From Candidatus Absconditabacterales bacterium (lineage in GTDB: Bacteria > Patescibacteriota > Gracilibacteria > Absconditabacterales > Absconditicoccaceae), in contig JAYREU010000039.1 in assembly GCA_041908765.1 (NCBI GenBank), positions 7,618 to 71,617 of the forward strand: a DNA stretch of 64,000 bases. Direction: 5' to 3'. Positions 8,742 through 55,261 of this stretch are shown here, piece after piece. The notes below the pieces were generated by a model. The model searched no databases and was not told the origin of the DNA. It worked only from the letters and a program-made list of their open reading frames with translations. A program made the translations under genes and the position numbers. Numbering within the stretch: the first letter of the stretch is position 1; every line of letters starts with the position of its first letter.

Positions 8742-9629
8742 TTAGTAGCCAATTTGGGGATCGACGTAATTGGGGATTTCTCCAGGATCGAAGAAAATTT
8801 TCTGGAATCTTGGGAGATCAGTAATGTCGTAGGGAAGAGCAAAGTTGAAGATTCAGCTGAATTCTTGATAGTTTACTTGATTGAGAGAATTGAGGTCCTT
8901 TTTGAGTTGATTCAATTGGTTGAGCATATCTGTTTCTAAGTATGCTTTGTGGGTCAAGAGTGCGTCAAAATTTTGTTCGAGGATATATTGTCTTTTGCGA
9001 AGAATACTTGCATGGGTACTTACTTTGTCTGCGAGATAACTGTAAGCGTTTGCATAGATTCTATTGGTAATATAACAAGGTGCTGCCTTGATAGACTGCT
9101 CAAGTCCTGCTTGTGTGTCTCCAGGAAGATTATTTTGAGCGCCAGCGAAGAAAAGTTGATCTCCGCCATTTTTTTCGGTGAGACATTCTTGAGCTATTTG
9201 TTGATGGTCGAGCGCGCGTTCTCTCAATGCTTGCGTGGTGTTCTCAATTTGTTCTAGAGTTTTGGATACATGTTTGAGATGGGTAGTGAGAGCAAGTTTG
9301 GGATCGCTACTTTCTTGGATGAGATCCAACACATCTACTTGTATCAGTGATGAACCTACGGAGTAGAGATGGAGTGCTGACTTGATACTGGGATCATTAC
9401 CAAAACTTCCTTCGCCGAGTGATATATTTGCAATAATAGATCCTACAGCAACGTCATCAACGGTAGTATGTTTGACATAGGTCTCTCAGATCTTGATATT
9501 TTGGTCAACCGTCCACACTTTGAAAAACGAAAATGAAACAGCCTGCTGAGCAGAAAGTACATATCGAAAGAGGAGTCAGATCAAGAAGGCGCCTACAAAG
9601 AGTCTCTTTTTTGTTTGTGTTCGTATCAT
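8742..9629 (-). CDS. hypothetical secreted or membrane-anchored protein
   Basis: ATG at 9629 (MIRTQTKKRLFVGAFLIGLLF...). Reads through TGAs into track ORF 8853-9332 and on to TAA at 8742-8744. Confidence 0.5.
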
Positions 9630-9793
9630 CTCGTGGATGTTACTAAAGTAATCTACGCTCTAAGCATACGCGTGGCACCCATTTTTTGCCATTCTGGCAC
9701 CTTTCAGAAGACGGAATAGATTGACTTTCAAACATTGTATGCTCTTATATATCAATATATTATACTTAAAACACCAAAATAGCCATATAAAAT

Positions 9794-9822
9794 TTGACAA
9801 ATATAGCAATTGTCAATAATAT
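9794..9822 (+). promoter_or_regulatory. sigma70-like promoter (TTGACA-17-TAATAT)
   Basis: ttgaca at 9794 and taatat at 9817, about 30 nt upstream of the ATG at 9853. The -35 hexamer lies within the inverted repeat ttgacaa...ttgtcaa. Confidence 0.5.
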
Positions 9823-9852
9823 AACTATACACATTTATGAATACAGATACGT

Positions 9853-11085
9853 ATGAAAACAAAAATCACCCTTAGCGCTCTTGTACTAGCCATTTCATGG
9901 TTTGGTTGGTCTACTTTTTCGGTGGAGGCAGGCACAGATCTTTCGGCATGTACCAAACAAACTTTCAGGATAACAGCCTATTACTCTCCCAAAGCAGATC
10001 AACGCTATTTTTTCCAAGGAGATCATACTGCCGAAACTAGACTCAATGGGAATGGTACCCATGGTGCTTCAGGAGCACCTGTTTTCAATGGCATGATCGC
10101 TGCTCCCAAAACATATGCGTTTGGTACTCAAGTAGTATTTCCTTGATTTGGTATTGGCCAGGTCGAAGATAGAGGTGGTGCAATTGTGCAAAAGGGAGAG
10201 AGAGGTGAAGAATACGACAGACTAGATATTTGGCTCGGTGAAGGTGAAGAAGGCCTCAAAAGAGCAATTTCCTTTGGTGTGTGATATATGGAGGGATATG
10301 TGTGTCCAGAGGGGACATCCAAAAAAGTAGGTTGGGATTTGAAAGCATTCCCGATCGATCAGAACTTTTTCTTCAACAGCTTGTGGATTATTCACTTGTG
10401 AGAGGGCAGAAAAGATCCTTGGGTATGGATGTTACAACGTTTGCTCCAACATCTCGAATATTATACCGAAGATGAACTCACTTCTACCTATGATGAACCT
10501 ACCAAACAAGCAGTGTGTTCATTCCAACAAGACGCATTAGGACTAGATGCAAGCAGTGTTCGGTGTGGGTATTTTGGTCCACAGACGAGAGGTGCTTTGT
10601 TGAGAGTAATCAAGAAAAAAGGTATTTATGATCTCTTTGCACAAAAAGATAACGACGAAATTGCACTTGCAGGTCAAGAAACTATTGAAATAGTTGCACC
10701 AGAGGAAATTCCTGTTGAAGAAACGGTCACAGAACCTACACAACCAGAAGTTGAGGTTGTTCCTACTCCTGTAGCGGCACCAGAGGAAACAGACCCCTCA
10801 CTCAATCAGAAAAATTCCCACTATCTCGCCATCGGAGATACGAGAGCATACCAATTCTTGGAAAACATCGCCCTAGGAACAGCTAATCGTGAGGTCAAAA
10901 TGTTGCAAAGAAAGTTGCAATGGCTTGGATTCTACACAGATCCAATTAGTGGAGTCTACGATACTACCACCGCGCAAGCAGTCTACGCATTCCAGCTCCA
11001 TCATAAACTCCTCACCGGTGATGAAAATCCCAAACTCTTCGGCTACTTCGGACCTGCTACGAGAGCAAAATTAAATAGTTTATAG
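9853..11085 (+). CDS. secreted cell-wall protein: 3D (MltA-like) domain plus peptidoglycan-binding repeats
   Basis: Signal peptide, then FRITAYYSP...NGNGTHGASG...DRGGAI (3D-domain-like), then two PG_binding_1-like repeats (YFGPQTRGAL, YFGPATRAKL). Fragments are joined by TGA=Gly. Confidence 0.7.
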
Positions 11086-11128
11086 GAAGGTTGAAAGTGG
11101 AAGGTGGAAAAGTTGAGCCCTCGCCTAT

Positions 11129-11160
11129 AAAAAAAATGAGGAGATGAGTCCTCATTTTTC
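11129..11160. terminator. bidirectional hairpin terminator
   Basis: A-run, tgagga-gatgag-tcctca, then T-run. Confidence 0.55.
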
Positions 11161-11178
11161 GTTCTTAGTTAAAATGAA

Positions 11179-11355
11179 TTAATTTTGCTCTGGAGAGTTA
11201 TTGGGGAAATGTTTGGTAAGATTATGGAAAAGTAGGGAAGCATAGATATCATGAATAACACTAGTTTGTGGTTCCAAATCTTGATTTAGTTCGTTGAGGC
11301 GATCAAAATCATCTTCATTTGTGTCATGCATCCAACTTTGTGGGACTCAAGACAT
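11179..11355 (-). CDS. small hypothetical ORF (58 aa)
   Basis: ATG at 11355 to TAA at 11179, with one TGA=Gly. No family recognised and it may not be expressed. Confidence 0.2.
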
Positions 11356-11456
11356 AGGTGTGTTGTAGCTAATAAAATAGTAATTGACTTATACTTATTC
11401 TATGATAAATTGCAAGGTGCTTTGCATTTTGTATTTTGCAACTTTGTTGATTTGTT

Positions 11457-12695
11457 TTATCGTCCTCTATCTTGCATCGCTTGCAATAATCTCTCTATAG
11501 CGACGATATAGGCAGCATCTCTTCGGCTGACGGTGTGTTGTTGGACTTTGCCATGGAGTGCATCCGTTGCATCACACATGATGAGGTGTAATCTGTCGAA
11601 AACTTCTTGTTTGCTTCGATAGTAGTTAGTGTTATTTTGGACTTGTTCGAAATAGCTGACCGTGACACCACCAGCATTAGCTAAGATGTCTGGCAGGACG
11701 ATGATATCTTTGGAGGTGAGGATTTTGTCTGCAGCGGGGGTAGTTGGACCATTCGCAAGTTCGAGGATTACTTTGGCTTGGACCATCGGTGCGTTGCTTT
11801 CGGTGATTTGAGATTCGAGGGCAGCGGGGACGAGAACATGACATGGGAGAGCAAAGAGTTCTTGTTCGGTAATGACATCTGCTCCTTCACAGGTGATGAC
11901 GGATTTATTTTGTGCCTTGATCTCCATAATTTTTTTCACATCAAGTCAGGTTGCTTTGTAGATAGCGCCTTGTGAATCAGAGATTGCGGTGACGATTGCA
12001 CCTGCTTCACATGCGAGGAGAGCAAAGTTGAGACCTGCATTTCCAGCTCACTGAATGACGATCGTTTTGCCCGCTAATGATTCTTTGGTATATCACAGGA
12101 ATTGTTCGAGGACATACATACCTCCAAGTGAAGTAGCAATATCTCTGCCTTTACTTCCTCAGATACTCAATGGTTTACCGGTGATGACACCAGGTTGCCA
12201 TTGACCGGTGCAGGTTGCGAACTCATCGACCATCCAGCCCATGATCATACCATTGGTATTTACGTCTGGTGCTGGCACATCTTTGGTGGGTCAAATGTGT
12301 TTCCGAATCTGTTGGATATAGCCTCTTGAAAGTCTTTCTAGTTCTGCTCTAGAAAGTGTTTTGGGATCGACAATAATTCAGCCTTTGCCTCAGCCAAGTG
12401 GGAGATCTACGACAGCGGTTTTGAAACTCATCCATGCAGAGAGTGATTTTACTTCGTCTAGACTAACTTGTGGATGATATCTAATACCACCTTTGAAAGG
12501 TCCTTTGACATCGACATGCTGACATCTCCACCCTTGAAACGTACGCTCCGTCCCATCATCCATATTTATTGTTACGTTGGCTTCGATGATATTGCGATGC
12601 GTCAATAAGTGCGCTAACAAACGCTCAGGAAATTTGTCTGCGAGATAGCCAGCGCTATGACGAATTTGTTCTTGGACTTGTCAGAAGAGTGACAT
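11457..12695 (-). CDS. gdh: glutamate dehydrogenase (Glu/Leu/Phe/Val dehydrogenase family)
   Basis: Contains [17 protein letters not shown] (the Gly-rich motif needs TGA=Gly) and a C-terminal NAD(P)-binding domain (GAGNAG, ANGPTTP). 413 codons in one frame. Confidence 0.9.
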
Positions 12696-12701
12696 GTATA
12701 T

Positions 12702-12741
12702 CAAATAATCAAATAAACAAATAGCCAAATTAACAAATCTG
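12702..12741 (+). repeat. phased CAAAT octamer array, copy 3
   Basis: The units are caaataat/caaataaa/caaatagc/caaattaa/caaatctg at 12702, 12710, 12718, 12726 and 12734. The array lies 7 nt from the gdh start codon. Confidence 0.6.
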
Positions 12742-12935
12742 TTCCCCGTCATTGCGAGGAGCCAAAGGCGACGTGGCAATCCACCTATTGGTTACCTGGA
12801 TTTGCTATCCCTTCAGGGACTTCCCCTGCGAGGACTATGCCTTGACACTCAGAATGACATGCATACTTCAGCTCTTTATTTTCGTACTCTATCCAAAATA
12901 TCTCCACAAACAACACCAAATCTCCCTCATTTTTT

Positions 12936-12964
12936 TTGACAGAAACAATGTTTTCATGTATACT
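12936..12964 (+). promoter_or_regulatory. consensus sigma70-like promoter (TTGACA-17-TATACT) for the DGR target gene
   Basis: ttgaca at 12936-12941 and tatact at 12959-12964. Confidence 0.6.
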
Positions 12965-13002
12965 TCATAGTGGCCTATTTCTCTCTTTATTTCCACCGTG
13001 TG

Positions 13003-16000
13003 ATGTTGAAAAAACAACCAAACGCGCCTCAGCAAGATGCCAACAAACATGACACCAATCTACGTTCTGCGATAGACACTTTCCCAAGTCGAAGAGAAGT
13101 AGCAAAGTTTTTGATTACTGAAAAAAGAAAAGAACTAGGTGATATATTGGAAAAAGGAAAAACCACCAAAAAACTTACCAATGAACAAAAAGGAAATCTC
13201 CATGAAGTACTCCAACATATCGCTACTGCACAGCTCGATGATGAACAAACACTGACTTTGTTGCAAGAGTATCTCGGATCTCTTGCGACGACTTCGACAC
13301 CAAAACAACTGCTTTCTCTTGCACAAAAACTTGAAGCACTCAAGCAAGGCACACTTGCGACAGATACCTGAGTATCTCGTCTCCAAGAACTCTTGCAAGA
13401 TCCAGAGTTTATCACTCACTATCAGGAATCGTATAAAGAACACGCTGAAGGCATCAAACATCTCTCGCATGGTGCAGAATTGTATCGTGCGCCACGTATT
13501 GATTTGCAAACTCTCACCGCGTGAAGTATCACTACCAAAGCGCCCAAGACCAAACAAGGCACGACACTTCCTCTCAAACATATCACTGATGAAGAGAGGA
13601 TGGCAAGTATTGAAAAACTCCCCGCCAAACAATCTTTATTTTCGTCTGCAGACCTTGCTTATTTGGGGCTTACCAAGACGACAATTTCACTCGAGACACT
13701 CGATACCAAAATACAACAGATCAAGAGCTATCTCGATGCGTTACAACTCCATATGTATACCTCGTGACAACTCACGAGTGACTATCCTAGTGCCATAAAC
13801 ACCGAGATACAAACGCTTCGTACCCTCATCACCAAACTTGAAATAGCTAAACAACTCCACCTCGATACACATGAAGTCGTTGCCTATGAGCGTCGACATC
13901 GTCTGCAGTGATTGAAAAAAGAACTAGATACAACATGACTTGCTTCTACCGAAACTGTCACCAAACAATACGAAGAAATGCGTCAACATATTTTCGCAGG
14001 TTGGTCGGTATTACTCACGGGTCCCGTCGGTACCGGTAAGACGGTCGGTGCGAGAAAACTTGTCGCAGAACTGATCGCAACTAAACTGGCTCGCTTGCAA
14101 AAACAACTCAAAGATTTGCCACCAGAAAACATTTCTCCCCCTGTGAAGCACCCTAAAGGGCATAAAGGGGAGTGAGAGGGGGTTTTAAAGCCATGATCAG
14201 CACAAACAGAACTCCTGTACTCTTCTTCTGAAAAAAGCTCTGAAGGACAGGATAAGGGGAAGGTCTCGAGCGCTACGAGTGACAGAGAACAAAAACAACT
14301 TACTCCACAGCAAAAACTTGAAAAAGAGATTGAAAGCCTCACCAAACTTCAAACAGATCCTCCCTTCATCAACGGTAACGCAGAGACCACCGTGAGACAG
14401 TTCGAATCAGTGGTGAGTCAGGTCAAGACCTGAAATGGCCATCTTCTTGAATATCTCCCTGGACCACTCACGCAGTGTATGAAATATGGACTTCCGCTCA
14501 TCATCGATGAAGCCAATCGTCTCAGTCCCGATGTGTTGTCAGCGCTCAAAGGCGAACTTGCCAAGCGTGCAGGTACCAGTTTCACCGACAAAAAAACAGG
14601 CGAGTCCTTCATCATCCAAAAGTTTTCAATTATCCTCACTGCCAACGAAGATCATCATCATGACACCACCAAAAAATTTCAAGATCAGATTGAAAGAGAG
14701 TTCCATAGAGTGACTATCGGCTATCTGCCTCCTGCAGAGTATGCACAAATTATTTCTGCCAAGACAGGGTGATCACTTGGAGTGTTTACAGACATCTGAA
14801 ACGACGCGTGGACAGCAAACATAGATGCTACTGATGCCAGCAAGACTATAGGCGGTATCTTGCCAAGACTCCTCGAAGCACAACAACTCATCATCGCGAG
14901 CTATGCCAAAAACGGCACCAAATACGATATTACCCTCTGATGAACTACCTCCAAACAACAGATCAGTAGTGCAATATGGGATACCAAACGTTTCTTGGAA
15001 CTGCGAAATACGGGACCAGATGATCGACATGATCGCATCAAATATCCGACACTGACCGACTATATCAAAGCCAAAGTGATTGCTTTCATCAAGACTCAGA
15101 TCAGCGACAAAGACCAAATGGTCCTGTGTGTGATTTTCAACAAACTTGGCATCCTTGACGCGAATGATACGCCTGCGCTTGCAGATCGCAATGTATGCGT
15201 CCACCTCAAATGAATCGATTTCAATCCCAATCTTTCCTTGTCTCTCCGTGATGCTCCCTCATCGCACGCACGCATGCTCACGACTCCGTACCAACGAGCG
15301 ACGGCAGATCAGTATGGTGATAGTTATCCTGATATGCCCTTCGATAATCCGCATATCGCCTATGCACAGCTCGCCAGTGAACTCATGACACGTGTACAAA
15401 ATAACTCTACCAAAACCTTACTTCGTCAGATTACCAAAGACGGAGCGTTGCGAAACGAAAAATTACCGAAGCTCGTAGAAGCACTCTGTACCGAAGGGAC
15501 TGATGCATATCTTGGCTTGTATACATACTTATCATCAACACCAGACACGCTGGAGAAGTTTGGCGAACTGCAACAACTCCTCAAAGATAAAAACTTCCTC
15601 CATACCAAAAAAGCCGAGATGCTCACGAAGATCGAGAGTGTCCTTCCCACTCTCCCTTTGGGAGAGGGTAGGGGTGAGGGCAATGACTCAACGCCTCATT
15701 CAGAACAGACCCTCCGTGATCTCCTCACCACCCTTGAAACAGACAACAGACAACTTCCCCTCGACGAACTCACGGACGCACTATTAGCAATCGATGAAGA
15801 TCTTTTTTTGTCGATAGTCACCATCGTAGGAGGAGCTGACATCCTAGACCCAAGTTGACGTCTCCTGAGCAGATATGATCTGATAGATCACTCTCGTAGA
15901 AAAGCAGCGGAGGAAGAGGCAAAAGAAAAAGCCAAGTGACTTGATCAGCAGTCAAACAAGCAACTATCTCCTTGATCGATCCTACAGCTCACCTCATGAC

Positions 16001-17433
16001 CAGAATTTAACCGTATCACCAAATACCGCCAAGACTTCCTCACGCAGATCAAAAATACAACCGAGACACCGCAGAGATTGAAGCAGATCGGTGACGCGAT
16101 GATCGCAAGTGGTGAGTTTGTCCTGTGACAAAAAGCAGGACTGGCCGTTGGCTATTTCAACATTCCTTGATTTTCAGCAGGTTTCGCGACGAGCGATCGT
16201 ATACGAAATGAAAACACTCCTGATCCAGATGACAATCTCTACGCTAGAGACTACGACAACAAAATCCTAGCACCAGATACTATCTACCAACCCAAACTCA
16301 AAGCACTCAGAAGTGATTTGAGAAAAGCCCGAAAAGACCCGATCAAAGCATCTATAAAACCTCTAGAATCACAAGGCATCATCTATGACCAGCAAGGCGA
16401 TATCAAAAAACTTATAGCGCTACTCATGACACAAAAATGATTGGACGAATCTGACGCACTCGCCTTGTATATGTATCTGACGGGACAATATGGTTACTAT
16501 TGGACTTGACAATACTCTTGAAATAGTCTTGGTGTTGTCAGACTCTTTGATGCTCTTCGTCGATTCAATTCGGACGATTACGATGATAGCAACTGCTCGT
16601 TGTTGTTCGCCGTGCCGAGCGGTAGCGAGGTTGCCTCCCCCGACGCACCTGAAATACAGGCACATCGTGCCTGGTGGAACGACAACATCACGTGAATAGG
16701 AACCGCACTTTTGGATCCCACCAAGACGAAGTGAATATTAACTTCGAAGCCCAGAAAGATGGACTTCCCCGATGAGCAATCATGCAAAACAGAACTGATA
16801 GACCGTATGGACAAGCGAGCAGCGAAGCATATCCGTCATATTTCCAACCCCTACAGTCTCGGTGGTTTCGCGACACAGATCACCCATCCAGAGTTCAACT
16901 CAGGCAACCCCCGTAACTTCTTCGAACCGCAGCTCGCAGACTTCAATCGTATCACCTGAAACACCGCTACCGATAATCTCTCTATGCAACAGTATGACTA
17001 TGCTAACCAAACGAAACTCTGAGTGAAGTTACGTAGTATCAGAGGAGATATGAATACACCTGACAAGCTCCCCGATATGATCTACGAAGATGAAACCAAC
17101 AAAACAGGTAAACAAGAAAAAAACCTCACCAAAATCTACTTGCAAGAAGTGAAGAAAAAAATCCCCACCTATAACGCACAGCCCCAGGACGAGTTGATCA
17201 AACTCATGCAGGTCATTGGCGAAGATCTTTGACTCTCTCCAGAATCATGAAAAGATCAACCCTTGCGCAAAGCAGCCCTGATGTATCTGTTCTCCGTGGC
17301 GGGACGATACTGGACTTGACAATACTCTTGAAATAGTCGCGGCGTTGTCTGGCTCATTGATGTTGTTCGCAGTTTCGATGCGTACGATTCTGATTATTTC
17401 CGCTGCTCGTTGTTGTTCGCCGGAGATGCATAG
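13003..17433 (+). CDS. DGR variable protein: large AAA+ (MoxR/AAA_5-like) ATPase with two C-type-lectin-like variable modules
   Basis: A single frame-1 ORF has no TAA or TAG from about 12712 to TAG at 17431, with many TGA=Gly. Walker A GPVGTGKT is at 14020-14043, Walker B LIIDEANR at 14497, and sensor-1-like IILTAN follows. VR1 is internal and VR2 is at the C-terminus (...CSLLFAGDA*). Alternative start: GTG at 12970. Confidence 0.8.
15647..15681 (+). repeat. GC-rich palindromic element ('GEGRGEG' family), in frame within the DGR target
   Basis: ccactctccctttgggagagggtaggggtgagggc, read as PLGEGRGEG. Confidence 0.6.
16527..16612 (+). repeat. DGR variable repeat VR1 (internal, more diverged)
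   Basis: 86 nt, colinear with the TR. By my manual alignment, 10 of the 23 TR adenines are substituted, and there are 5 non-adenine differences. Confidence 0.7.
17337..17422 (+). repeat. DGR variable repeat VR2 (C-terminal)
   Basis: 86 nt, colinear with the TR. By my manual alignment, 15 of the 23 TR adenines are substituted, with only 2 non-adenine differences. The 3' 20 nt (ctgctcgttgttgttcgccg) are identical to the TR and contain no adenine. Confidence 0.85.
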
Positions 17434-17456
17434 GAAGTTGCGTAGCGACTGACTAT

Positions 17457-17474
17457 ATTCCGCGCTAGCGGAAT
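17457..17474 (+). other. hairpin downstream of VR2 (candidate DGR target-recognition stem-loop)
   Basis: attccgc-gcta-gcggaat: a 7-bp stem with a 4-nt loop, 35 nt after the end of VR2. Confidence 0.45.
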
Positions 17475-17498
17475 GTCCCCCCCAACGCGCGAAGCGAC

Positions 17499-17533
17499 TC
17501 CCTCTACCTTTGGGAGAGGGTCGGGGTGAGGGT
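17499..17533 (+). repeat. GC-rich palindromic element ('GEGRGEG' family), intergenic copy
   Basis: ctccctctacctttgggagagggtcggggtgagggt. Confidence 0.6.
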
Positions 17534-17732
17534 TGTATTTTTTCTGCACATCAGTATCAATCTCCTTGCTAGATCTTACAAGGTCTAGCGAGTCTGGGGG
17601 GACTCAATCTGCTCCGCCACTGGTAGCTTTGTGCTGTCAGTAGTATAAGATGTGCTATGTGGATTTGTTCCAATAGTTATCTTCGCTGACCTACGGGGAG
17701 ACCTGTATCGTCATGAGTTAGTGTGGGGTGAA

Positions 17733-17818
17733 TCGCGGCGTTGTCAGACTCAATGATGATAATCGCAGATTCGATACGAACGATAACGATGATAACAACT
17801 GCTCGTTGTTGTTCGCCG
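17733..17818 (+). repeat. DGR template repeat (TR)
   Basis: An adenine-rich 86-nt copy of the VRs (23 A; reads as AAC/AAT/GAT codons), located 72 nt upstream of the RT start codon. Confidence 0.85.
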
Positions 17819-17890
17819 AGACTGATCTTCTCCTTTCTTTCACTTTCCGCCTCCTGTAGGTGGGAGTGATTTTTTGTTTTCGTTCGCATC

Positions 17891-19069
17891 ATGCAACTTG
17901 TTTATGCAGATCTTCACTACGCCTACCAGCGTGCACGCAGAGGTAAATCCAAGAAAAAAGAAATCATCGCCCGAGAAGCTGATCTGGAAAAAAATATGCA
18001 ACAATTATACAAAGATATTTGTGCATGAAACTATCAGATAGGAACTACCAAAAGATACATCGTAGCAGATCCCGTCGTCAGAGAGATCGTTGCGTTATCC
18101 TTTCGTGACCGTATCGTGCAACACCTAGTCTCGCATTATCTGATGCCGTTATTTGAATCTCAGTGGATACATGATAGCTATGCGAATAGAGTAGGGAAAG
18201 GGACGTTGTTTGGTATCCGTAGAGTAGACAAATTTATGCGTTCTTGTTCTCGCAACTATACAGTAGATGCACGAGTTTTGAAACTTGATATTCAGTCATG
18301 TTTCATGAGTATTTCGAGGACACTCGTACGACAACTTGTGACGCGCCGTCTCTTTGCTTGTAGAGTAGGCCGATCCAAGGAAATTATCTTATCATTGGTG
18401 CACAAGATATTGTTTCATGACTACGTGACTTGACGAGAGGACCATACTATCGCATCCTTGAGAAAAATCCTCCCGGTACACAAAAGTATGTTAGCCTGTC
18501 CACCAAACACCTGACTCCCTCTGGGTAATCTCACGAGTCATCTGTTTTCCAATATCATCTTGCATGAGCTAGATCTTTTTATCAAACATGAGTTGCACAT
18601 ACACTACTATGGCAGATATGTAGACGATTTCGTCTGTATGCACGCAGATCAAGGCTATTTGAAATCTTGTATTGCAAAGATCGAATATTTTTTGAGCACT
18701 CAGCTTGGACTGCATATCCATCCTCGCAAGATATACTTCCAGCATTTCACCAAATGAGTCCCATTTCTGTGAGTAGTCATTAAGCCCTACTGTAGACTGA
18801 TTGGACGCAAAACGATTCGTGCACTACAAAAGCTTCCTTCACTGATTCCGCCACGTATATCACTAGCGGACGGCGTCCATATTGGGCAATCCATCAATTC
18901 TTACTTCGGACTTGTCCGTCATCACGATAGCTTCTGCCTCAGAAAATCCTTGATTTCTGCACTCCCACCCAATCGGTATAATTACCTCCGTGTCCGTCCT
19001 GGGTATAGTTCTGTGAAGCCGAGGGTGAGGGAGGTGCAAAACACACAAAATCTCTTGCAAAAAAATTAA
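17891..19069 (+). CDS. DGR-type reverse transcriptase
   Basis: 392 codons after joining three fragments through TGA=Gly. Motifs include SFRDRIVQH, IHDSYANRVGKGTLFG (the DGR RT hallmark SYAxRxGKG) and YGRYVDDFV (YVDD at 18617-18628). Confidence 0.9.
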
Positions 19070-19278
19070 GACGTCATGAGTATATACTATTTTGTTAGTA
19101 TGTATACATGACGAATGTAGGCTATGACTTTCATAAAATCTAGTGGGTTAACTCACCAAATTCATATGAAATTAGGGTTTTTAGTCACTAAAATATACTT
19201 TTTTATAGGTTTTCCTTGTTTTTTTAGTAAATTTTCATATTATAATATTATAATTCATTTAATTTTTCGTATCATAAT

Positions 19279-20412
<1,134 letters not shown>

Positions 20413-20415
20413 TCA

Positions 20416-22791
20416 CTACACACTCGTTTCGAGATGTTCTATCAGCAACTCCTGAATATGTTGTCCTAGCTCGTGAGGGGAGTCACAGACTTCACCATAG
20501 CCGAGAGCGTTTGCCTGTGGCTCATCTTGTTTCGCGCCAAAGAGATCAAGGATAGGACTACCGCTCGAGGTGATACCGAGTCCACAGGTGATGATACCGA
20601 GGTCACGGGCTTTTTTGATCTGTTGTTGCATCTTTGTAGCATCATCACTACCTCCATCAGACATGAGGAGGAGGATTTTTTTTCGACGTCAGGATTTGAT
20701 CTGTTCGAGATAGCGGGTGTGCTCCTCAGGAGTATGGTCATGAACAGCTGCATCTTGGAGCTGTTTGGTATACGCTTTCATAGCCACGAAATCGCCCGTA
20801 GATGAGCTGGCGATCTGCAGTTTATGATTTGCGACGAGGAGTTCTTTGGTGGTAAGTTTGGAACTACGCTTTCGTAAGGTGTGTGTTGTTCATCACGAAA
20901 ATAATGATGCTGAACTGAAGATATCTATCCCAGAAATATGTGCATCATCAATCTCTTCTTGCAACCTCGAGAGTGCATAGCCGACGAGAAGGGAGTTGAC
21001 CCTTTGATCATAATTTTTGGTTCATTTGGTCATTGATCAAGACCCATCAGCAATGAGATCAAACTCGAATCCATTGAGTTCTTTTTTTTCTATTTCTCTA
21101 CGTTTATTTTGTTCTCGGATGTGCGGATCGCCGTCTTGATTATCGGTGAAAAGATTTACTATCTCATCGGTATACATAGCACCGTTACTTTTCTCTCGTT
21201 TGACGGGGCCACGATACCCAGGGAGGTGAGTGGCTTTGAGTGTTTGGAGACGACTGAGAATATCTTGCGTGATGAAGTTGAGAATATTACGTCATTCACT
21301 ATCGGTGAGTGCTTCGATAATTGATTTTATCTGTTCTCGATCGTCAAGTTGTTGGAGCAGAAACTCTTTTGTCTTGTCGAACGTTTTGTGCTTGGTGTTG
21401 AAATTTTCGTTCGCCCGATCTACGAGTTCTTCTTTTTTATGCTCGAGGAGGGGATCATCAGCTTTGAGATCAAAGGTTTGGTTGAAGGCTTGTTCGAGTT
21501 TTTGGTCTTTCTCAGTCTGCGGAGTTGCGTTGTGGGTGAGTTGAGCAAGGAGTTGTTTGAGGTCAGAAGGGGTGGGTTGAGATAAATCCCCCGGCTCGTT
21601 TCACTCGCCACCCCCTTTATCAAGGGGGAAACTCTGTGGATCGACGTTGATGCCTGCTTGTTCGAGGAGATGCGGGATGGTGCGAGGGGTGCCGGTGGGA
21701 GCTGCGCCTTCACCTTCATTCTTCGCCTTATCGCTCTCCTTATCCTTTCCTTCAGATTGCTTTCCCGAAGGAGAGGGAGGTTGTTCTGCTTGCCCTTCAT
21801 TATCCTTAGTTTTGGATTCTTGCTTTCACTCAACCGTTCATTCAGCCTTGCCTTGAGTTTGATTTCCATCTTGTGCTCACCCTCACCCCTGCCCTCTCCC
21901 AACCGTTCATTCGGCTTCGCCTCATTCACTAGGAGAGGGAGTATTAGTGGGTTCCTTATCCTTCGCCTTATCATTCTCCTGTTCTTCTAGTTCGAGGTAG
22001 ATGTCAAAGAGCTGAATCATCGCGGGATATCTCATCGGGAGCGTGTTGAGTTGTTTATGCGTTCGTACATCGCTTGCAGATCTGATGAGTAGTTCGTTGT
22101 TGTCGATATAAGATTGTACTTCTTCATCGACGAGAGGTCGTGATCCAGTAGTTTGCCCTTTCAGAATGGCTCGAGCGAACTGCTCGTGGAGAGGATTTTC
22201 TTTTTTGGTGCCGTCTTGGAGGATTGTGTATCTGAGATCTGTCTGTGGAACAGTTCGTTCGAGATAGTTGTCACGCATATAGGGTGCAAGGGTGTTGGTT
22301 TGCTTCATATCTGCTGACCATTTATCTACTCGAATATCTCTGATGATGTTTTCGAAGTGTCTCCACTTTTCACCATAGGTGCGCAGAAGATCTTCTCTTA
22401 GGTGCTGTGTTGTATTTTTGTAGTTCGTAAGTCTGACGGTACGTGGTCTTGGAGTTATTTCGCAGGATGATTGATCTGCCATCAGCTGTCCGTACTCTAC
22501 CATATGTCCGATCTCGTGGACGAGAATTTGTAGGATATGTCATTTCTCGAGAATGAAATTACTTCCTTGTTCTTTGACGAGTTGTGAAATATATTGCGAA
22601 GTGAATTTAGGATTAAAAAAAATCGTACTCTTACCGTGTTGCATTCGTGCGATGTTTTGATTGTTCGTTGCAATCTGAAAAGTGATACCCTTCATCTGGG
22701 TAATGGTGTGCAGAATACTTTGAAACTCACGTTCGAACTCTGTGGTCGTCCGCTCAGAGATATCGAGGTGAGTGGTGGGAGTATTTTTCAT
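20416..22791 (-). CDS. HExxH metallopeptidase-like N-domain plus von Willebrand A (MIDAS) C-domain protein (DUF2201-like architecture)
   Basis: One minus-strand frame is open for 791 codons. HEIGH lies within 22501-22518, followed by a Gly/Glu/Lys-rich linker. The MIDAS motif DGSGSM is at 21034-21048 and the vWA C-terminal part (LLLMSDGGSDD) follows. TAG stop at 20416. Confidence 0.8.
21877..21900 (-). repeat. GC-rich element ('GEGRGEG' family) inside the vWA-protein linker
   Basis: caccctcacccctgccctctccc is the reverse complement of the family consensus. Here it is read in a different frame, as GRGQGGGG, using two TGA codons. Confidence 0.5.
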
Positions 22792-22797
22792 GCAATA

Positions 22798-22826
22798 AGT
22801 ATACTCAAAAGAAGATATATTGTCAA
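22798..22826 (-). promoter_or_regulatory. consensus promoter (TTGACA-17-TATACT), probably giving a leaderless mRNA
   Basis: On the minus strand, ttgaca is at 22826-22821 and tatact at 22803-22798. Only 6 nt separate the -10 hexamer from the ATG at 22791. Confidence 0.6.
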
Positions 22827-22928
22827 TTTTTTTGTGCAGAAGTCAACTACAAGAACTGCCTTCTTTCCTTGCATCTCATTTTATTTTCCCTATTATGAAG
22901 CACGTGAAGAGTTTAGGTGATACTTGTA

Positions 22929-23078
22929 CACCTCTGCAAAAGTCCCAAAAGTGCATATGTACTTTTGAGGACGCCTAAAGAGGTTTCTCAAGAAAGCGTT
23001 GTTAGCTGATCTTCCAGGGCTGTAATACACCTTGTAACGCTAGGAATGTAAAGCAAAGTTTTAATTTTGCAGAGCTTA
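22929..23078 (-). ncRNA. roughly 150-nt structured repeat, copy 1 (candidate ncRNA or MITE)
   Basis: The reverse complement aligns along its whole length with 31133-31283. The terminal inverted repeat is ctctgcaaaa/ttttgcagag and there is an internal hairpin. Confidence 0.5.
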
Positions 23079-23110
23079 CTTACTTTTAATTTGCTAGTTA
23101 CTATTTATCT

Positions 23111-23311
23111 ATGGGACAAACTGAAAAGTCATTGAATAAACGAATTATAGGAGCCATTATTGGATCAGCCCTGATCGGCGTGAGCGGATTGTCGATGACT
23201 CCAAAAGGCCAAAGCTTCTGGAAACGTCTCTTGTTGAGAGTGCGCGGTATATTCCGTTTTTTTAGTGGAGGAGTACAAGAGATGAAAAAACAGATAGAAA
23301 AAGAGAAATAG
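23111..23311 (+). CDS. small hypothetical membrane protein
   Basis: 66 aa with ATG start, TAG stop and one hydrophobic helix. Confidence 0.35.
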   Translation: MGQTEKSLNKRIIGAIIGSALIGVSGLSMTPKGQSFWKRLLLRVRGIFRFFSGGVQEMKKQIEKEK

Positions 23312-23452
23312 AAAGAAAATTATTTCGAAAACTAATACACATACGGATAGCTTTCTGTAAAGCAAAAGACAAAGATAAATGCTCTGGAAATTGTTATTTT
23401 GGAAACTATCACTAGACTCAATGATGCGATACACATATCTTTAATTGTATGT

Positions 23453-26050
23453 ATGGGAGTTATGACAAACAAAAGTTTCACCTTTACCAAGGACTACCTC
23501 GATAGCATTGCGCAAGCAGGCTTGTTTACCTATCAAGCAGATCAGCAAGTGATCCAGGCTGATGATGTCGTGTTGTGAGTATATATGTACTCCAAAAACT
23601 ACATTTTCTTCAATTTGTTTTGGTCGTTTTTGGGATGCAAAAACCCTGAATTGCTCCAAAAATATATTAATACTACCTTCAAGACTATCAAGAAAGTGCC
23701 CGTGAGAGCTCGCATGAAATTTCAACTTACTGGCTTATTCAAGGATAAATTCCAATATTATAGAAAACAAGGAGTCAGCAAAGTAAACTTTCTTACCTTA
23801 CTCCTGATTGCGCTAGATGGTATTTCTCCCCAACTCATTCATTTTCTCAAACAAAATGAAGTTGAGGTAGAATACATGAAAGAAAAACTCAGAAAAATTC
23901 TTGAGATGACCTACAAAGCAGATCTCTCTCCGATTGATTTTTTCAAGATGCTCGACAATATGGTCAAGCAGCTCGGTTTGGATGTCAATCAAGTTGATAT
24001 GTTTGTAGATATGAAAAATTTTTCTGCGGACACACTTGCACAAGAGCTCATGATGGCAAACCCAGGAACTATTGATGGAAGCGAGGATGCTACCGTTGAT
24101 ACTATTGCAAACTCAACTGATGAAACCAAAAAATTAACCATAGAGTACTTTGGGACAGATCTCACAGATGAAGCTAAAAAAGGATTCTTGGATCCCGTGA
24201 TTGGGAGACAAATGGAAATTGAACAAATCGTCTATACCCTGTTGCGTAAGACCAAAAATAATCCGCTCTTGATCGGTGAAGCGGGTGTCGGTAAAACAGC
24301 CATAGTAGAGGGTTTGGCGCAAGCAGTGGTTGCAAAACGTGTCCCTGATAGATTACTCAACAAACGTATTTTCATGCTCGATATGGGATCTCTTTTGGCA
24401 GGCACCAAGTACAGAGGTGAATTTGAAGCAAGACTCAAAACTATTTTGGAAGAAGCAGCAGATCCTCTCAACAATATCATTTTGTTTATTGATGAAATCC
24501 ATACCATCATCGGTGCGTGAAATGCTGAAGGAAGTGCGGATGCAGCCAACATGCTCAAACCACTGCTCTCAAGAGGCAAAGTACAATTGATAGGAGCAAC
24601 TACCTTTGATGAATATCAAAAACATATCGAAAAAGATCCAGCACTCAAAAGAAGATTCCAAGAAATATCAGTTTCAGAGCCAAGTAGAGATGATGCGGTG
24701 ACTATCCTCACCGGACTCAAAGAAATGTTCGAAGAATTCCATGGAGTGCGTATCGAGCAAGAAGCAATCGAAAAAGCGGTAGACTACAGTATCAGATATC
24801 AGATGAATAAGCACTTGCCTGATAAGGCAATTGATCTCATCGATGAGGCATGTGCAAGAGTTTCTACCATTGCCAAAAAACTCGAGGCAAATGTGGAGTA
24901 CCAACAAATCGAAGAAGCGATCACGACTACCAAGAAAAAAATTGAACAAGCGATCGACAAACAAGATTATTTCGTAGCAGCAGAGCTCAAAGAAAAAGAA
25001 GAAGAACTCAAAAAGAAACTCAAGTCTTTGAGACAATCACAAGCATTGCCCAAGCATTTGAGACCGGTTGTTACGTTACTTGATATCGGACGTGTCTTGG
25101 CAGACAAAATGTGAATTCCTTTGGATAAGATTACTGACTCAGAGATCAAGAAACTCGCTGCTATGGATGCACATCTCAAGACCTTTATCCATGGACAAGA
25201 TGAGGCAGTAGATGCTGTGGTCAAAGCGATTAGAAGAAATAGAATCTCTCTTGTACAACGCAACAAACCTATTGCTTCTTTCTTGTTTCTCGGGCCATCA
25301 GGTGTGGGTAAGACATACCTTGCGAAACTCTTAGCCAAAGAATATTTCGGAGACGAGAAGGCAATGATTAGAGTTGATATGTCTGAGTTTATGGAAAAAT
25401 ATTCGGTTTCCAAATTGATTGGTTCAGCACCTGGATATGTAGGGTATGAAGAAGGTGGCGTACTCACTGAACAAGTGAGGAGAAAGCCTTATAGCGTAGT
25501 ACTGTTTGATGAAATTGAAAAAGCTTCTCCAGATGTACTCAACGTACTGCTTCAACTTTTGGACGAAGGACATCTCAAAGACAACAAAGGTAGATGGATC
25601 GACTTCAAACATACGATTATTATCCTGACCTCCAATATGTGATCAGATAAATTTGGCAAAAAACTTGCAAGCATCTGATTCGTTGGTGGTGATACTAAGA
25701 CCTATGACAACAAACAATTTGATCTCGTCAAAGAAAGAGTGATTGAAGATGTCAAAGCAAGACTAGCTCCTGAACTCGTCAATAGACTCAATGCCATGCT
25801 TGTCTTCAAACCATTGACCAAAGATGAATTAGGAGAAATTTTCAAAACCAAGCTAGACCTCTTCTATGATCAATGGAAACTCAGACCAGGTATTAGACTT
25901 CCCAAGTTTGACAAGAAACGTATCGCACAAGTGATCGACAAGATCTACGATCCTCAATACGGTGCGCGTCCTGTCGAAAGATATTTACATGACGAGCTCG
26001 AACCAGAATTGATTGAGCAAGTGATGAGTGAAGAGTTGAAGAAAGCATAG
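23453..26050 (+). CDS. clpC: ATP-dependent Clp protease ATP-binding subunit ClpC-like (class I AAA+)
   Basis: Two AAA+ modules (GEAGVGKTA; GPSGVGKT) with a short middle domain. TGA 24518-24520 restores the conserved GAG (IIGAGNAEG). KLASIGFVGG gives an IGF ClpP-binding loop only if TGA is Gly. Confidence 0.9.
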
Positions 26051-32617: not shown

Positions 32618-35600
32618 ATGAAAAACTTTGTACTTACCATCAAGTCTTATTGCTTGCATTACCGCTATATAGTGGTGAGTTTTTTTGTTCTAAGTATACT
32701 TGGCCGAAGTAGTTGACTACCTTATAGAGAGGTAGTGTTTGCACAAGCACCCAATCAATGCATCCAGGATGTTGCCAAGTTTCAAGAGTGTATTGCATCG
32801 GGTATGAGTAAAAGATACTGTACCTATCTCCACACAGACAAATCATGCCTAGCTACACAACCAGAGGCAGCTGCACTTTCTACAGAAGCAAGTCCCTATG
32901 TGGAGCAGTTAGTCGATCAAGGATTTGATCCGTATTGGATTGAAGTGGAACTCAAGGAGAAAGATAAAAGAATTCTCCAAGACTTTGATCACCAAACACA
33001 AGATGTAGCAACCTATGCAGACAAACTAGCGAGAGTTGCGGATGCTGCAGAGACGAGTATTCTATGAGTCACTTTTCGTAATTCTACCTCCAGAGTAAAT
33101 ACTTATTTCGCAGATGCTGCCAAACTCTATCAGCTTGATCACGTCGAAAATATTACCGCCTACTGGAAAAAATATAGCGACAATATAAATGCTAACGTCT
33201 ATCAAATTCGTGTCGATGACCCAGCGGATATCGAGGCTATCAAGCAAGACCTGGAGGCACTGGATGATGTAGCTGAGGTGCGTGTGCTTCCGCAGTATGA
33301 AACCTTTGTCGTTCCCAATGATCCGCATTTTTCTTCGAAGTTACGACATTTGAAATGAGGTGCATGAGTCAATGCAGTCGAGGCATGGGATCAACTCCAA
33401 GGACAGACTATTACCCCGGTGGTATGTTCAGCTTCTGATAGCGAATTTACCAAAGGCCACGAAGATCTAGTAGGGAATATTGATTATGCAGATGCAGGTC
33501 AGGATGGTCCTACGCATGGGACGCATGTAGCTGGTATTATGCTCGGCGTGACCGACAATACCAAAGGTATTTCTGCAGTTTCGTACAACGCATGTAGAGG
33601 TAAATTGTATGTTGGCTTGTGAACATGGCCTTCCAACCTTCAAAAAGCGCATGCGGCATGAGCAAAGGTATTCAATATGTCTCTGGGTATTCCCAACAAA
33701 TGATGTGGCGTCCCTTATGCAACCTACAAGAGCAAATATTTCAGCGCAAACGAACAAGCAATTATCGATGCAGCTACAGCTGCAGGTGTCACGGTGGTAG
33801 CAGCAGCAGGCAATGATGGTTGCAGCTTTTCATCTTATCCAGCGCTTTATGAAAATGTTATTTCTGTAGTTGCTTTGGACCAAGGCGGTAACAAAGCAAG
33901 TTTTTCAAACTATGGACAAGGTACCGACGTAGGTGCACCGGGAGTAAATATATATTCTACGTGGCCAGGAGGATACAAAGATGCAAGTGGTACGTCTATG
34001 GCAACTCCATTGGTTGCTTCGTTAGTTGGTTTGCTCAAAGCACTCAAGCCAACATTAACTACTGCTGAAGTACTCAAGATTTTGCAAGAAACGGCTGGCG
34101 CGCAATTCAAAGTCGATGCATGTAAAGCAGTCGCCAAAGTATTGGGTAAGTGATATCAGTGTACCTGATCAGGAGGTGGAGGTGGTGGAAACACCATTGG
34201 GGGAAGTACTACTGCGTGAAGTACGAGTGCATGAAGTACAAGTGCATGAAGTACGAGCGCATGAAGTACGAGCGCATGAAGTACAAGCGCATGAAGTACA
34301 AGCGCATGAAGTACAAGTGCATGAAGTACAAGTGCATGAAGTACAAGTGCAGGATCAACCAGTGCTGGTAGCAATGGCGGATCAAATGGTGGAGGTATTA
34401 GTTGTTCAAATGGTATTAGAGATACCAATGAAACAGATGTAGACTGTGGAGGAACCTATTGCCCACTTTGTCAGGAGTGACAAAGATGTAATGTTGGCTG
34501 GGATTGTGATACACAGTATTGTGATATTTGACAACAGGGTTGAAATAATGGTGGAAATAATTGAAATACGAATTGAAACACAAATTGAAGCACCAACGGA
34601 GGAGGTAGTTTGCCTCCAAGCAAGGATCTAACCTTTTCGTATGCAAATGGATCTACACAAAAACTGAGCACACTCTTCAACTGACATCCCTATATTTTTG
34701 TAGATTTCTCAGCATCACGATGTGGGTATTGTGTGCAAGGAGCTAAGACGCACAATGCATTGTTCCAATGACGAAATGATAATGGGAGTTGTGCCTTTGC
34801 TGCAATAGTTGCAGACGGAGATCTTTGAGCACGACAGGGAAGTATAGCATGAGCACCATTTGTAAGCGCAAACTCAGTATTTGCAAAATGAGATGGCTTG
34901 GCGAAGGTAATTGCGAAACTCTGAGGTAGTTCTGGCGGTATTCCATATTACGTTATATTTGATCAAAACGGAAATATTATCCAACAGCAACATGGGTATT
35001 CTTCATCGATGCCGCAATTTGATAGCATTTGTGGTCAAAAAAATAACGGAGGTACTAATTGAGGTACCAATGCTTGAAATAATAATAGTGGAAACAATAA
35101 TTGAGGTACCAATTGAACCAATAACGGCTGAAATAGTGCCTGAGGAAATTCTTTGTCTGATGCAGCAAAAAAAATCAAACTTACCTTCAATGGTGGTGTC
35201 ACTAAAACTTTAGACGATGTGCATCAGAATCAATATCTACTTCTTGATATAGGAGATTCAAACTGTGGTCAATGTGTAGTTGGTGCAGAAAAACATAATG
35301 AACTCTTTCAAAAGCGAACTAATGATGGGAATTGTCAGTTGTTAACTGTCACTAAAGATGGCGATCTGCCTGCTTGGGTTGGCAAAATTTGAGCTGCTCC
35401 TTTTGTACAAAAATGGTCTGCTTACGTGACAGATGGTTTATACAAACTTATGTGAGCACTCAATATTCCTTGAACGGTTTTGCCGTATTATGCACTTGTT
35501 GATAGTAAATGACAAATTGTTATCGACCAGCAAGGGTGGTCTGATCTTGAAAAGAATTTTGCATCATACTGTGATGCACAGTGAGGGACTAATGGAGGAA

Positions 35601-41434: not shown

Positions 41435-41590
41435 GATTATTTCATAAGTACACTTTCTGTAGAAAGTAAATAGTATATATACACAAAAACTCACAAAGAC
41501 AACTTGAATGATGTTGTTTTTGTGGATTTCGTTTAGACAATTACGAGGAGAGTGGTATAGTGAACATACTTTATGTATCTTGAGTATCGT

Positions 41591-54800: not shown

Positions 54801-55261
54801 CGGTTACCTCGGCAGTGCATCAAACTATCCAAGGTGTTACTGATGATTTTCATGCGCTCAAGCTCAATACTGTCGTGAGTAAATTGATGATATTGACCAA
54901 TACAATCTATGATCAACAGGCAGCAACTAGCGATGATATGTGTATCATGACTCGTTTACTCGCACCGCTTGCGCCTAGTTTGGCAGACCGTTTGTGGGAA
55001 GCACTGGGACAAACAAATGATGTGCAATATGCGCCTCGACCTCTTGTAGACTCAACCAAAATTATCATCGAACAGATTAACCTCCCTGTACAAATAAATG
55101 GTAAAATGAGAGGAACCTTGCCTGTAGCTCCTGGACTGTGAGAGCAGGAGATATTGGGATTACTTCACACACATGAACATTTCGCATGATATCTAGTGGA
55201 TAAAACGATACAAAAGTCTATCTTTGTACCAGATAAGATAATTAATATTATCGTTAACTAA
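51851..55261 (+). CDS. leuS: leucine--tRNA ligase with two large in-frame insertions (1136 codons)
   Basis: MFPYPSG..LHCGH (HIGH class), [21 protein letters not shown] (KMSKS) and a C-terminal [11 protein letters not shown]. All fragments (51758-53119, 53558-54523, 54596-55141) are in frame 2, and no TAA or TAG occurs in between. Confidence 0.9.
53000..53436 (+). mobile_element. DUF559 (Vsr-like endonuclease) cassette bounded by 36-nt inverted repeats, inserted in frame in leuS
   Basis: Left repeat: ttccctctccttttgggagagggtcagggtgagggtg (53000-53036). Right repeat: accctcaccccatccctctcccaaaggagaggggga (53401-53436). The interior encodes [58 protein letters not shown]... Confidence 0.65.
53633..54181 (+). 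other. Nudix hydrolase domain inserted within LeuS
   Basis: A perfect Nudix box [23 protein letters not shown] lies at 53804-53872, between the conserved LeuS blocks SPIPVYY and [11 protein letters not shown]. Confidence 0.75.

Follow-up and report, generated by a model that had tools for sequence, protein, structure and literature searches.

Organization of the locus

We analysed a 64-kb stretch of contig JAYREU010000039.1 from a Candidatus Absconditabacterales bacterium (hereafter the window, whose coordinates are used throughout), which carries a putative diversity-generating retroelement (DGR). The cassette comprises a predicted target gene with two variable repeats (VR1 and VR2), a non-coding template repeat, the TR, and a gene for a reverse transcriptase (RT), all on the plus strand. 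For comparison, 174 loci were gathered and screened for RT genes; these database relatives are designated L001–L174, and related proteins P0001 and so on. The main features are as follows.

13003..17433, plus strand: predicted DGR target gene, 1476 aa under code 25, frame open from 12859
16525..16612, plus strand: VR1, at the end of VR module 1 of the target gene
17335..17422, plus strand: VR2, ending 8 nt before the TAG stop codon at 17431–17433
17731..17818, plus strand: TR, non-coding, with 25 A in 88 nt
17891..19069, plus strand: predicted DGR reverse transcriptase, 392 aa under code 25, pI 10.0

VR1 and VR2 lie in one reading frame of one open reading frame (ORF), 810 nt or 270 codons apart. 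The TR starts 297 nt past the target stop codon and ends 72 nt before the start of the RT gene.

Genetic code and genomic context

ORF calling with translation table 11 breaks up almost every gene of the window. Once TGA is treated as a sense codon, the longest open frame extends from 455 to 2952 codons, and the coding density of 94% is reached only under this assumption. In the stretches of the RT that align to the RT of Bordetella phage BPP-1, all four TGA codons pair with glycine, and so do the three confidently aligned TGA codons of the Clp ATPase encoded at 23453–26050, a gene confirmed by alignment to ClpC. Because TGA thus pairs with glycine seven times and with tryptophan not once, code 25 was assigned rather than code 4. 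According to these alignments, the genome reads TGA as glycine, as in the code of the Gracilibacteria/Absconditabacteria type. The RT relatives at 41–42% identity carry the annotation Candidatus Gracilibacteria. The deposited database proteins P0001 and P0004 render TGA as tryptophan. Standard-code pipelines would fragment this RT and its target and could miss DGRs of code-25 lineages.

Aminoacyl-tRNA synthetases and a peptidyl-tRNA hydrolase were recognised in the window by sequence motifs, and the presence of these housekeeping genes identifies it as cellular DNA. No tRNA was found within the window, and an Rfam search over positions 12000–23500 returned no known RNA family.

Template and variable repeats

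In a repeat search, three copies of a direct repeat emerged at 16498, 17308 and 17704, spaced 810 and 396 nt apart. Ungapped realignment set the 5′ borders of the repeats 2 nt further 5′ than the preliminary description of this DNA, giving 88 nt in place of 86 nt; both procedures confirmed the three colinear repeats that it had listed. The TR adenines fall mostly at codon positions 1 and 2 (AAT, AAC, GAT and AGA codons).

VR2 is mismatched to the TR at 16 of 25 adenines and at 2 of 63 other positions (Fisher’s test, p = 1.7e-9). For VR1 the corresponding values are 11 of 25 and 5 of 63 (Fisher’s test, p = 2.4e-4), and no TR thymine is altered in either repeat. The adenine bias that had been counted by hand is therefore strong upon computational realignment, and the earlier counts (15 adenines plus 2 other positions for VR2, 10 plus 5 for VR1) are exact on the 86-nt frame. 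The last 20 nt, CTGCTCGTTGTTGTTCGCCG, are free of adenine and identical in the TR, VR1 and VR2, as had been described, with no visible distinction between the initiation-of-mutagenic-homing sequences IMH and IMH*. Position 17732 is A in the TR and G in every VR allele, so it probably lies outside the homing tract, the effective extent of which would be 17733–17818. Motifs around the TR are kept in the window and in L007, L008 and L010: GTGYGGRGTGAA upstream and GAGACTRA downstream.

Variation of VR2 between assemblies

The population comparison used L002–L006, assemblies that encode an RT protein identical to that of the window. L002 and L005 derive from two SRA runs that neighbour each other in accession number and probably belong to one project; the others have separate SRA/DRA/ENA accessions. 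The source accessions include SRR30303872, SRR30303826, SRR26835459, DRR784962 and ERZ27258482. These assemblies match the window at 99.8% over 7–10 kb, and all differences but one fall within VR2. Each of them carries an intact RT and TR of unchanged sequence, the TR being the same in all five assemblies. VR2 is represented by five alleles, four at the DNA level and one known from protein only (P0128).

The four DNA alleles differ from one another in 22 columns, 20 of which correspond to TR adenines. Pooled over these alleles, 60 of 92 A sites are changed, compared to 2 of 252 non-A sites (p = 1e-40). Three of the four show zero non-A mismatches to the TR, which indicates that they were freshly rewritten from the present template. 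VR2 thus differs among otherwise identical genomes almost solely at TR adenines, and the outcome of the diversification process is directly visible. The confinement of population polymorphism to TR adenines, which had been suggested for testing with reads, was found for VR2 with assemblies in their place. Judged at the assembly level, VR2 is being rewritten now. Of the two adenine-mutated VRs described earlier, only VR2, with its five alleles, is currently active; VR1 is invariant across the assemblies. The comparison provides an unusually clean natural record, in which one genome was sampled several times and is identical over 7–10 kb save at adenine-templated sites of VR2.

Repeats of 86–115 nt with 70–80% identity within 1.3 kb can mislead short-read assemblers, and the target cluster includes several database entries that are short fragments. 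The VR2 alleles might accordingly be assembly or consensus artefacts, arising where TR, VR1 and VR2 reads were collapsed together or strains were mixed. However, they carry bases absent from both VR1 and the TR, e.g., TGT, TGG, CTC and GGC at A-codons. Their non-A positions always have the TR/VR2 state and never one specific to VR1, and the VR2 flanks are unique and identical. Furthermore, the same VR2 allele was obtained from two runs of one project and different alleles from other projects. We regard an artefactual origin of the alleles as very unlikely.

Reverse transcriptase

The RT reported earlier at 17891–19069 with the motifs SYANRVGKG and YVDD was confirmed, given that TGA is read as sense: the frame is open only under this reading, with five TGA codons in the profile-matched part (17891–19024). 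The protein carries the catalytic YVDD, SYANRVGKG and LGNLTSH and matches Pfam RVT_1 with E = 1e-15. Its closest solved structure is the DGR RT of Bordetella phage BPP-1 (8ub7, E = 5.5e-29), while group II and retron RTs score about 1e-6. A total of 2927 homologues were found at E ≤ 1e-10. A-biased TR/VR pairs were identified at 97 of the collected RT loci (that of the window included), most of which adjoin a bAvd gene. Taken together, the structure matches and the neighbouring bAvd genes and TR/VR pairs support placement of this RT in the DGR clade rather than outside it.

A different account would hold that the repeats arose by ordinary domain duplication plus a non-coding pseudo-copy, followed by normal mutation, beside an unrelated group II intron RT or retron/defence RT. 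VR1 and VR2 do sit in duplicated module ends of ~70 aa, and the homology between them reaches further upstream than their homology to the TR; the RT also gave sub-threshold matches to group II, retron and DRT models. The mismatches are nevertheless A-specific (11–16 of 25 A compared to 0 of 23 T and 1–3 of ~20 C or G), and the variation between samples is limited to A sites of one repeat. The gap between 5.5e-29 and ~1e-6 also argues against an unrelated RT, and Rfam found neither an intron RNA nor an msr/msd family. The probability left to this account is negligible.

VR1 as a fossil repeat and loss of the TR and most of the RT gene in a sister lineage

VR1 is identical in all five DNA assemblies and in P0128. 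At sites where the TR now reads CGC...GAT ACG, VR1 has CGT...AAT TCG. In the related cassettes L007, L008 and L010, the TR reads CGY...AAT TCG in every case, and every VR2 allele follows the present TR. Since VR1 keeps ancestral TR bases, it was last rewritten before the TR gained these substitutions. On this sequence evidence, VR1 is a fossil written by an older version of the TR and is no longer rewritten.

DNA folding revealed hairpins 3′ of both repeats.

17436..17474, plus strand: stem-loops 3′ of VR2, AGTTGC-GTA-GCGACT (17436–17450) and ATTCCGC-GCTA-GCGGAAT (17457–17474)
16615..16630, plus strand: degenerate stem-loop 3′ of VR1, CCGAGC-GGTA-GCGAGG, mismatched at two central positions

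The stem-loops of VR2 begin +14 and +35 nt past the repeat and are candidate target-recognition hairpins. Hairpins of the stem-G(N)TA-stem type were also found 3′ of VRs in L008, L010, L001 and L007. At the position orthologous to the VR1 hairpin, L001 has a perfect CCTGGC-GATA-GCCAGG. Degradation of the hairpin 3′ of VR1 is a possible explanation for the inactivity of this repeat.

L001 is a syntenic locus with a target orthologue of 66% identity and no RT gene. Directly past its target stop codon lies sequence collinear with window positions 18983–19090, which cover the final ~90 nt of the RT gene plus the flank 3′ of it. Compared to window positions 17445–19090, L001 (14338–14510) lacks ~1.5 kb corresponding to the TR and to codons 1 to about 362 of the RT. 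Judging from this collinearity, the TR and the greater part of the RT gene were deleted in the sister lineage, leaving both VRs frozen.

These two cases are what would be expected if the DGR were a dead relic, its repeats recording past activity and nothing being diversified today. That description holds for VR1, with its lack of variation, its 5 non-A mismatches and its ancestral TR bases, and for L001, where the TR and RT are lost. It does not fit the five VR2 alleles amid an otherwise 100% identical 7–10 kb, the three of four VR2 DNA alleles without non-A mismatches, or the intact RT and TR in all assemblies; as an account of the cassette in the window, it is highly improbable. The fossil VR1, the deletion in L001 and the active VR2 together document the birth, activity and decay of DGR targets without experiment.

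Target gene

The target is encoded by a single, stop-free frame with 31 in-frame TGA codons; its start (MLKKQ, 13003) was taken from database orthologues. The protein consists of a conserved N-terminal region, an AAA_5-type ATPase and two C-terminal VR modules.

14020..14511, plus strand: ATPase core of the target, with Walker A GPVGTGKT at 14020–14043 and Walker B LIIDE at 14497–14511

Both motifs are intact (Walker A at aa 340, Walker B at aa 499). Between them lies a charged low-complexity insert (14044–14496, aa 348–498), the length of which varies among the orthologues P0001, P0002 and P0003 and is ~45 aa shorter in P0002 and P0003. After removal of this insert the AAA_5 match was above the gathering threshold (E = 1e-7, 32.5 bits), and the best PDB matches were midasin AAA modules (E = 3e-11). 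A crude scan of the target for long hydrophobic runs found no stretch of at least 16 residues and no transmembrane segment. The target is predicted to be a cytoplasmic protein with an N-terminal MoxR/midasin-type AAA+ ATPase.

Among target orthologues, the N-terminal ~800 residues are nearly invariant and the C-terminal third is divergent. The last ~480 residues form the two modules, each with a VR at its end, and likeness between the modules is limited to their final ~70 residues. VR2 encodes the last ~29 residues of the protein. Only three homologous clusters were found among 5.8 billion, namely that of the target itself and two orthologues, and a profile search of genome contigs with the target alignment returned no relative.

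The fold of the variable module was addressed by several searches. Comparison of the VR module with Pfam and PDB gave no match beyond noise, even at E ≤ 10, and the VR-module alignment, used as a profile against PDB, gave nothing at E ≤ 10. With the 273-aa VR2 module as query, a word-index search for homologues was also negative. The main target type of related DGRs carries a recognisable Lcl_C/DUF1566 domain; against the VR domains of Lcl_C type from 78 related DGR targets, hhalign gave a probability of 0.5%. A by-eye reading of ‘YYWTGQ...CSLLFA’ as a DUF1566-like C-type lectin was dropped after this negative hhalign result. In CPR (Candidate Phyla Radiation) bacteria, targets typically have no domain that can be recognised, and new variants of the C-type lectin may be concealed among them (Roux et al. 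2021, PMC8144416).

Absence of Avd from a recoded subclade

The accessory protein Avd is present in about 74% of DGRs and is not strictly defining for them. It was searched for with a hidden Markov model validated as Pfam bAvd. With this profile, Avd was found beside the RT in 122 of 149 standard-code loci and in 9 of 15 recoded loci. No match was obtained in window positions 9001–25000 or in L007, L008, L010, L103 and L171–L174 (nine loci with that of the window). Nine of the ten window ORFs of up to 205 aa had no Avd-type Pfam match, and the tenth is the peptidyl-tRNA hydrolase according to its motifs; for this genome, the absence covers the 64 kb that are visible. These nine loci include all those sampled with an RT 46–82% identical to that of the window. 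All of them read TGA as sense, and all have the compact target-TR-RT layout. A JGI contig of 1.66 Mb, Ga0558118_00024, holds two cassettes that are paralogous. If these side observations hold, Avd-independent homing would mark the whole recoded subclade.

Long AAA-type targets recur in L010, L171 and L173. Two VRs are clear in L010 and L171, and L173 has a duplicated module end.

Neighbouring genes

Two genes lie 3′ of the RT gene.

19279..20412, plus strand: AAA_14/DUF4143 ATPase (Pfam; PADLOC PDC-S01, E = 1e-130)
20416..22791, minus strand: ORF13, putative partner protein of ~791 aa, frame open to 22956

ORF13 contains a HEIGH zincin motif and a C-terminal VWA domain with a DGSGS MIDAS motif; the VWA match (E = 4e-4) is below the Pfam threshold. 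The HExxH and DxSxS (MIDAS) motifs are kept in the ORF13 homologues of L001, L010, L171 and L173, which adjoin AAA-type DGR targets in four differently arranged neighbourhoods. A functional link is argued for by this difference in gene order among loci that have both the target and an ORF13 homologue. In the literature examined, no report was found of an HExxH/VWA partner gene of CPR AAA-type targets. Should these side observations hold, AAA-fused CPR targets would work with a conserved VWA/zincin partner.

The slot 3′ of the RT gene varies between loci. L007 carries an AbiEii pair (1745–2981) and L173 a Fic gene, L172 and L174 have genes other than AAA_14 beside the RT, and in the syntenic L001 the slot holds an inverted AAA_14 gene of 23% identity (14589–15752). 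The AAA_14/DUF4143 gene was considered as a replacement accessory factor, since such genes recur next to related RTs, and rejected: its copies are only 23–25% identical where the RTs are ~60% identical, the L001 copy is different and inverted, and L007, L172, L173 and L174 have other genes. It is probably a candidate defence cargo in a variable slot and not part of the DGR. As a side observation, the slot behaves like a small defence-gene hotspot.

AGA and TGA codons in template repeats

The TR of the window contains two AGA codons (17746–17748 and 17767–17769). Across the four VR2 DNA alleles, the first A of these codons is T in 5 of 8 cases. Adenine mutagenesis can convert AGA to TGA, and TGA to cysteine or tryptophan codons; both would be nonsense-prone under the standard code. 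Codons were counted within the mutagenised tract, with the expectation taken from the usage of each locus’s own genes.

Recoded DGRs have 9 AGA codons in their TRs compared to 6.9 expected, and 9 of 9 are mutated in the VR. In standard-code DGRs, 8 AGA codons were found compared to 16.2 expected, an approximately 2-fold depletion, with a mutation in the VR at just 1 of the 8 (p = 4e-4). TGA itself occurs in five recoded TRs, where the VR reads TGC, TGG or TGT, and the TR of L171 has TGA at the exact place of a window AGA. The recoded TRs noted for AGA or TGA are those of the window, L050, L103, L158, L171 and L174. Loci with an AGA or TGA codon make up 10 of 15 recoded and 8 of 85 standard-code loci (p = 5e-6), in statistics that ignore kinship: the window groups with L007, L008 and L010 in a single clade, and the independent lineages number perhaps seven. 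These counts suggest that a reassigned code gives the TR a larger choice of safe codons. The use in TRs of AGA and TGA codons that are safe only under code 25 is unreported and may be new.

Non-coding elements around the template repeat and other features of the window

Two further elements flank the TR.

17500..17532, plus strand: G-rich inverted-repeat element of ~33 nt followed by a T-run, in the VR2-TR spacer
17844..17876, plus strand: stem-loop and T-run in the TR-RT spacer, a terminator-like site

At the spot in L007 equivalent to 17844–17876 there is also a hairpin with a T-run, and its stem sequence is different. Attenuation, or an RNA structure for cDNA priming, are candidate roles for this stem-loop. 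As a side observation, the non-coding spacer at 17478–17625 is 90.7% identical to L007, compared to 79% for the TR and RT stretch (17720–19105). This spacer holds the G-rich element, the T-run and a hairpin, CTAGATCTT-ACA-AGGTCTAG, which is present with changes in L007; it could hold the TR promoter or part of a functional DGR RNA.

The G-rich element, CCCTCTCCTTT GGGAGAGGG T NGGGGTGAGGG, occurs in 5 copies in the window compared to 0 expected: at 15648–15680, 17500–17532, 21880–21900 (minus strand), 53002–53034 and 53402–53422 (minus strand). Four of the five are within coding sequence, in frame, and read ...LGEGRGEG... or the reversed form. The copy at 17500–17532 may be the terminator of the target gene or a small mobile repeat. 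In the orthologue P0002 the element is inverted at the same site of the target gene, and it resembles in-frame palindromic elements of Rickettsia.

Two side observations concern other parts of the window. In a large aminoacyl-tRNA-synthetase-like ORF (51851–55261), two inverted copies of the G-rich element bracket an in-frame insert of ~390 nt (53014–53422), which by eye resembles a DUF559/Vsr-like endonuclease domain. The insert may be a mobile insertion tolerated within an essential gene. An ORF of 2938 aa at 32618–41434, with 107 in-frame TGA codons, is followed by one of 766 aa at 41573–43873 with 31. This use of TGA for glycine is far above that of the housekeeping genes (0–14 per gene), and the two ORFs may encode giant surface or repeat proteins.

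Interpretation of the cassette

We interpret the locus as a chromosomal DGR of target-TR-RT layout in a bacterium that reads TGA as glycine, with a probability of roughly 93%. The DGR proposed in the preliminary description is supported. Findings named beforehand as speaking against it (polymorphism spread over all bases or absent, an RT outside the DGR clade, loss of the adenine bias on realignment) were looked for and did not appear. Its elements, a TR, two VRs and an RT, stand; the account is refined by the assignment of code 25, the placement of both VRs in one target gene, the inactivity of VR1 and the lack of Avd.

By analogy with characterised DGRs, the TR region would be transcribed and the RT would make cDNA from it, misincorporating opposite template adenines. 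The cDNA would then replace the homologous VR, guided at its 3′ end by the shared A-free block and probably also by the stem-loops 3′ of VR2. The variable module may act as a ligand sensor, with the ATPase and the zincin-motif/VWA neighbour transducing the binding event, as proposed for DGR-armed NTPase conflict systems. This role of the target and ORF13 is held with lower confidence than the DGR itself.

Several points weigh against this interpretation. The window’s own VR2 allele has two private non-A differences, at 17391 and 17395, and the diversification of VR2 was deduced from consensus assemblies of different samples rather than from heterogeneity within a sample. Avd, which BPP-1 requires, is absent from the locus and from the small ORFs of the window. 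The motif LGNLTSH of the RT departs from the SQ that is the consensus among its relatives. No likeness of the VR module to a C-type lectin or another known VR fold was detected, and the sensor/transducer role is drawn solely from domain content and gene neighbourhood.

A wider proposal is that the cassette belongs to a distinct, TGA-recoded and Avd-independent DGR lineage, which arms an AAA+/zincin-VWA machine with hypervariable sensors and whose TRs exploit stop codon reassignment. We offer this tentatively and rate its chances as somewhat below even. If true, it would be the CPR equivalent of the DGR-diversified NTPase conflict systems, which have until now been linked to multicellular bacteria.

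Comparison with known systems

The cassette shares with the BPP-1 DGR (mtd-avd-TR-brt) the RT clade, the flow from TR to VR with adenine-specific changes, the A-free 3′ block in TR and VR, the position of a VR at the C-terminus of the target and the presence of candidate stem-loops just 3′ of the VR. In contrast to BPP-1, it has no Avd gene, is chromosomal and not phage-borne, and uses code 25. Its target is a predicted cytoplasmic AAA+ protein of 1476 aa, not a tail-fibre tip, with two VRs in one gene, and its VR module is not recognisably a C-type lectin.

DGRs are enriched in CPR bacteria (PMC8144416), and an AAA ATPase with a C-terminal variable domain is the commonest CPR target according to Paul et al. 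2017, as cited in PMC10907252. The present system resembles the CPR/Patescibacteria DGRs (‘clade 2’, Roux et al. 2021, PMC8144416) in being a cellular DGR of a reduced-genome lineage with an AAA-fused target. It also has a conserved HExxH/VWA partner gene, of which no report was found in the literature examined. In the CPR set of Wu et al. 2018 (PMC5758913), avd is present in 90% of cases (architecture B3), whereas the recoded subclade described here lacks avd in 9 of 9 loci, all of which read TGA as sense. Avd-less DGRs of ‘Architecture A’ make up 29% of DGRs, and an Avd-independent homing mechanism was inferred for them in the same study (PMC5758913). The cassette is similar to these Architecture A/Lineage 3 elements in its TR-RT core, the target immediately upstream and the absence of an accessory gene.

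DGR-diversified sensors have been described within MoxR-vWA ternary conflict systems of cyanobacteria and Chromatiales (Kaur et al. 2020, PMC7159879; Dore et al. 2024, PMC10907252), and single targets with tandem VRs of unequal activity are known from Thiohalocapsa (PMC10907252). Like the MoxR-vWA/STAND conflict systems, the present locus combines a MoxR-class AAA+ ATPase, a vWA protein and a DGR-diversified sensor, with tandem VR modules of unequal activity in one target, a predicted cytoplasmic location and a defence-gene neighbourhood (PDC-S01 here, AbiE in a relative). The variable modules here are fused to the ATPase itself rather than the vWA protein, in contrast to those systems. Further differences are a host from the CPR/Patescibacteria instead of the multicellular groups and an RT of a different clade. 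No VMAP protein and no TIR, EAD or peptidase (trypsin/caspase) effector or adaptor was found among the ORFs at 11457–26050, all of which are accounted for and where no VMAP-alignment search was made, and PADLOC returned no match for the target or ORF13; the sole candidate effector is the HExxH motif on the vWA protein ORF13. Classification as a VMAP ternary system was rejected because the VR modules are on the ATPase, a VMAP protein or classical effector is missing, and the host is of the CPR/Patescibacteria rather than of the multicellular groups. Every main trait of the cassette has a precedent in the literature, and it does not represent a new kind of system.

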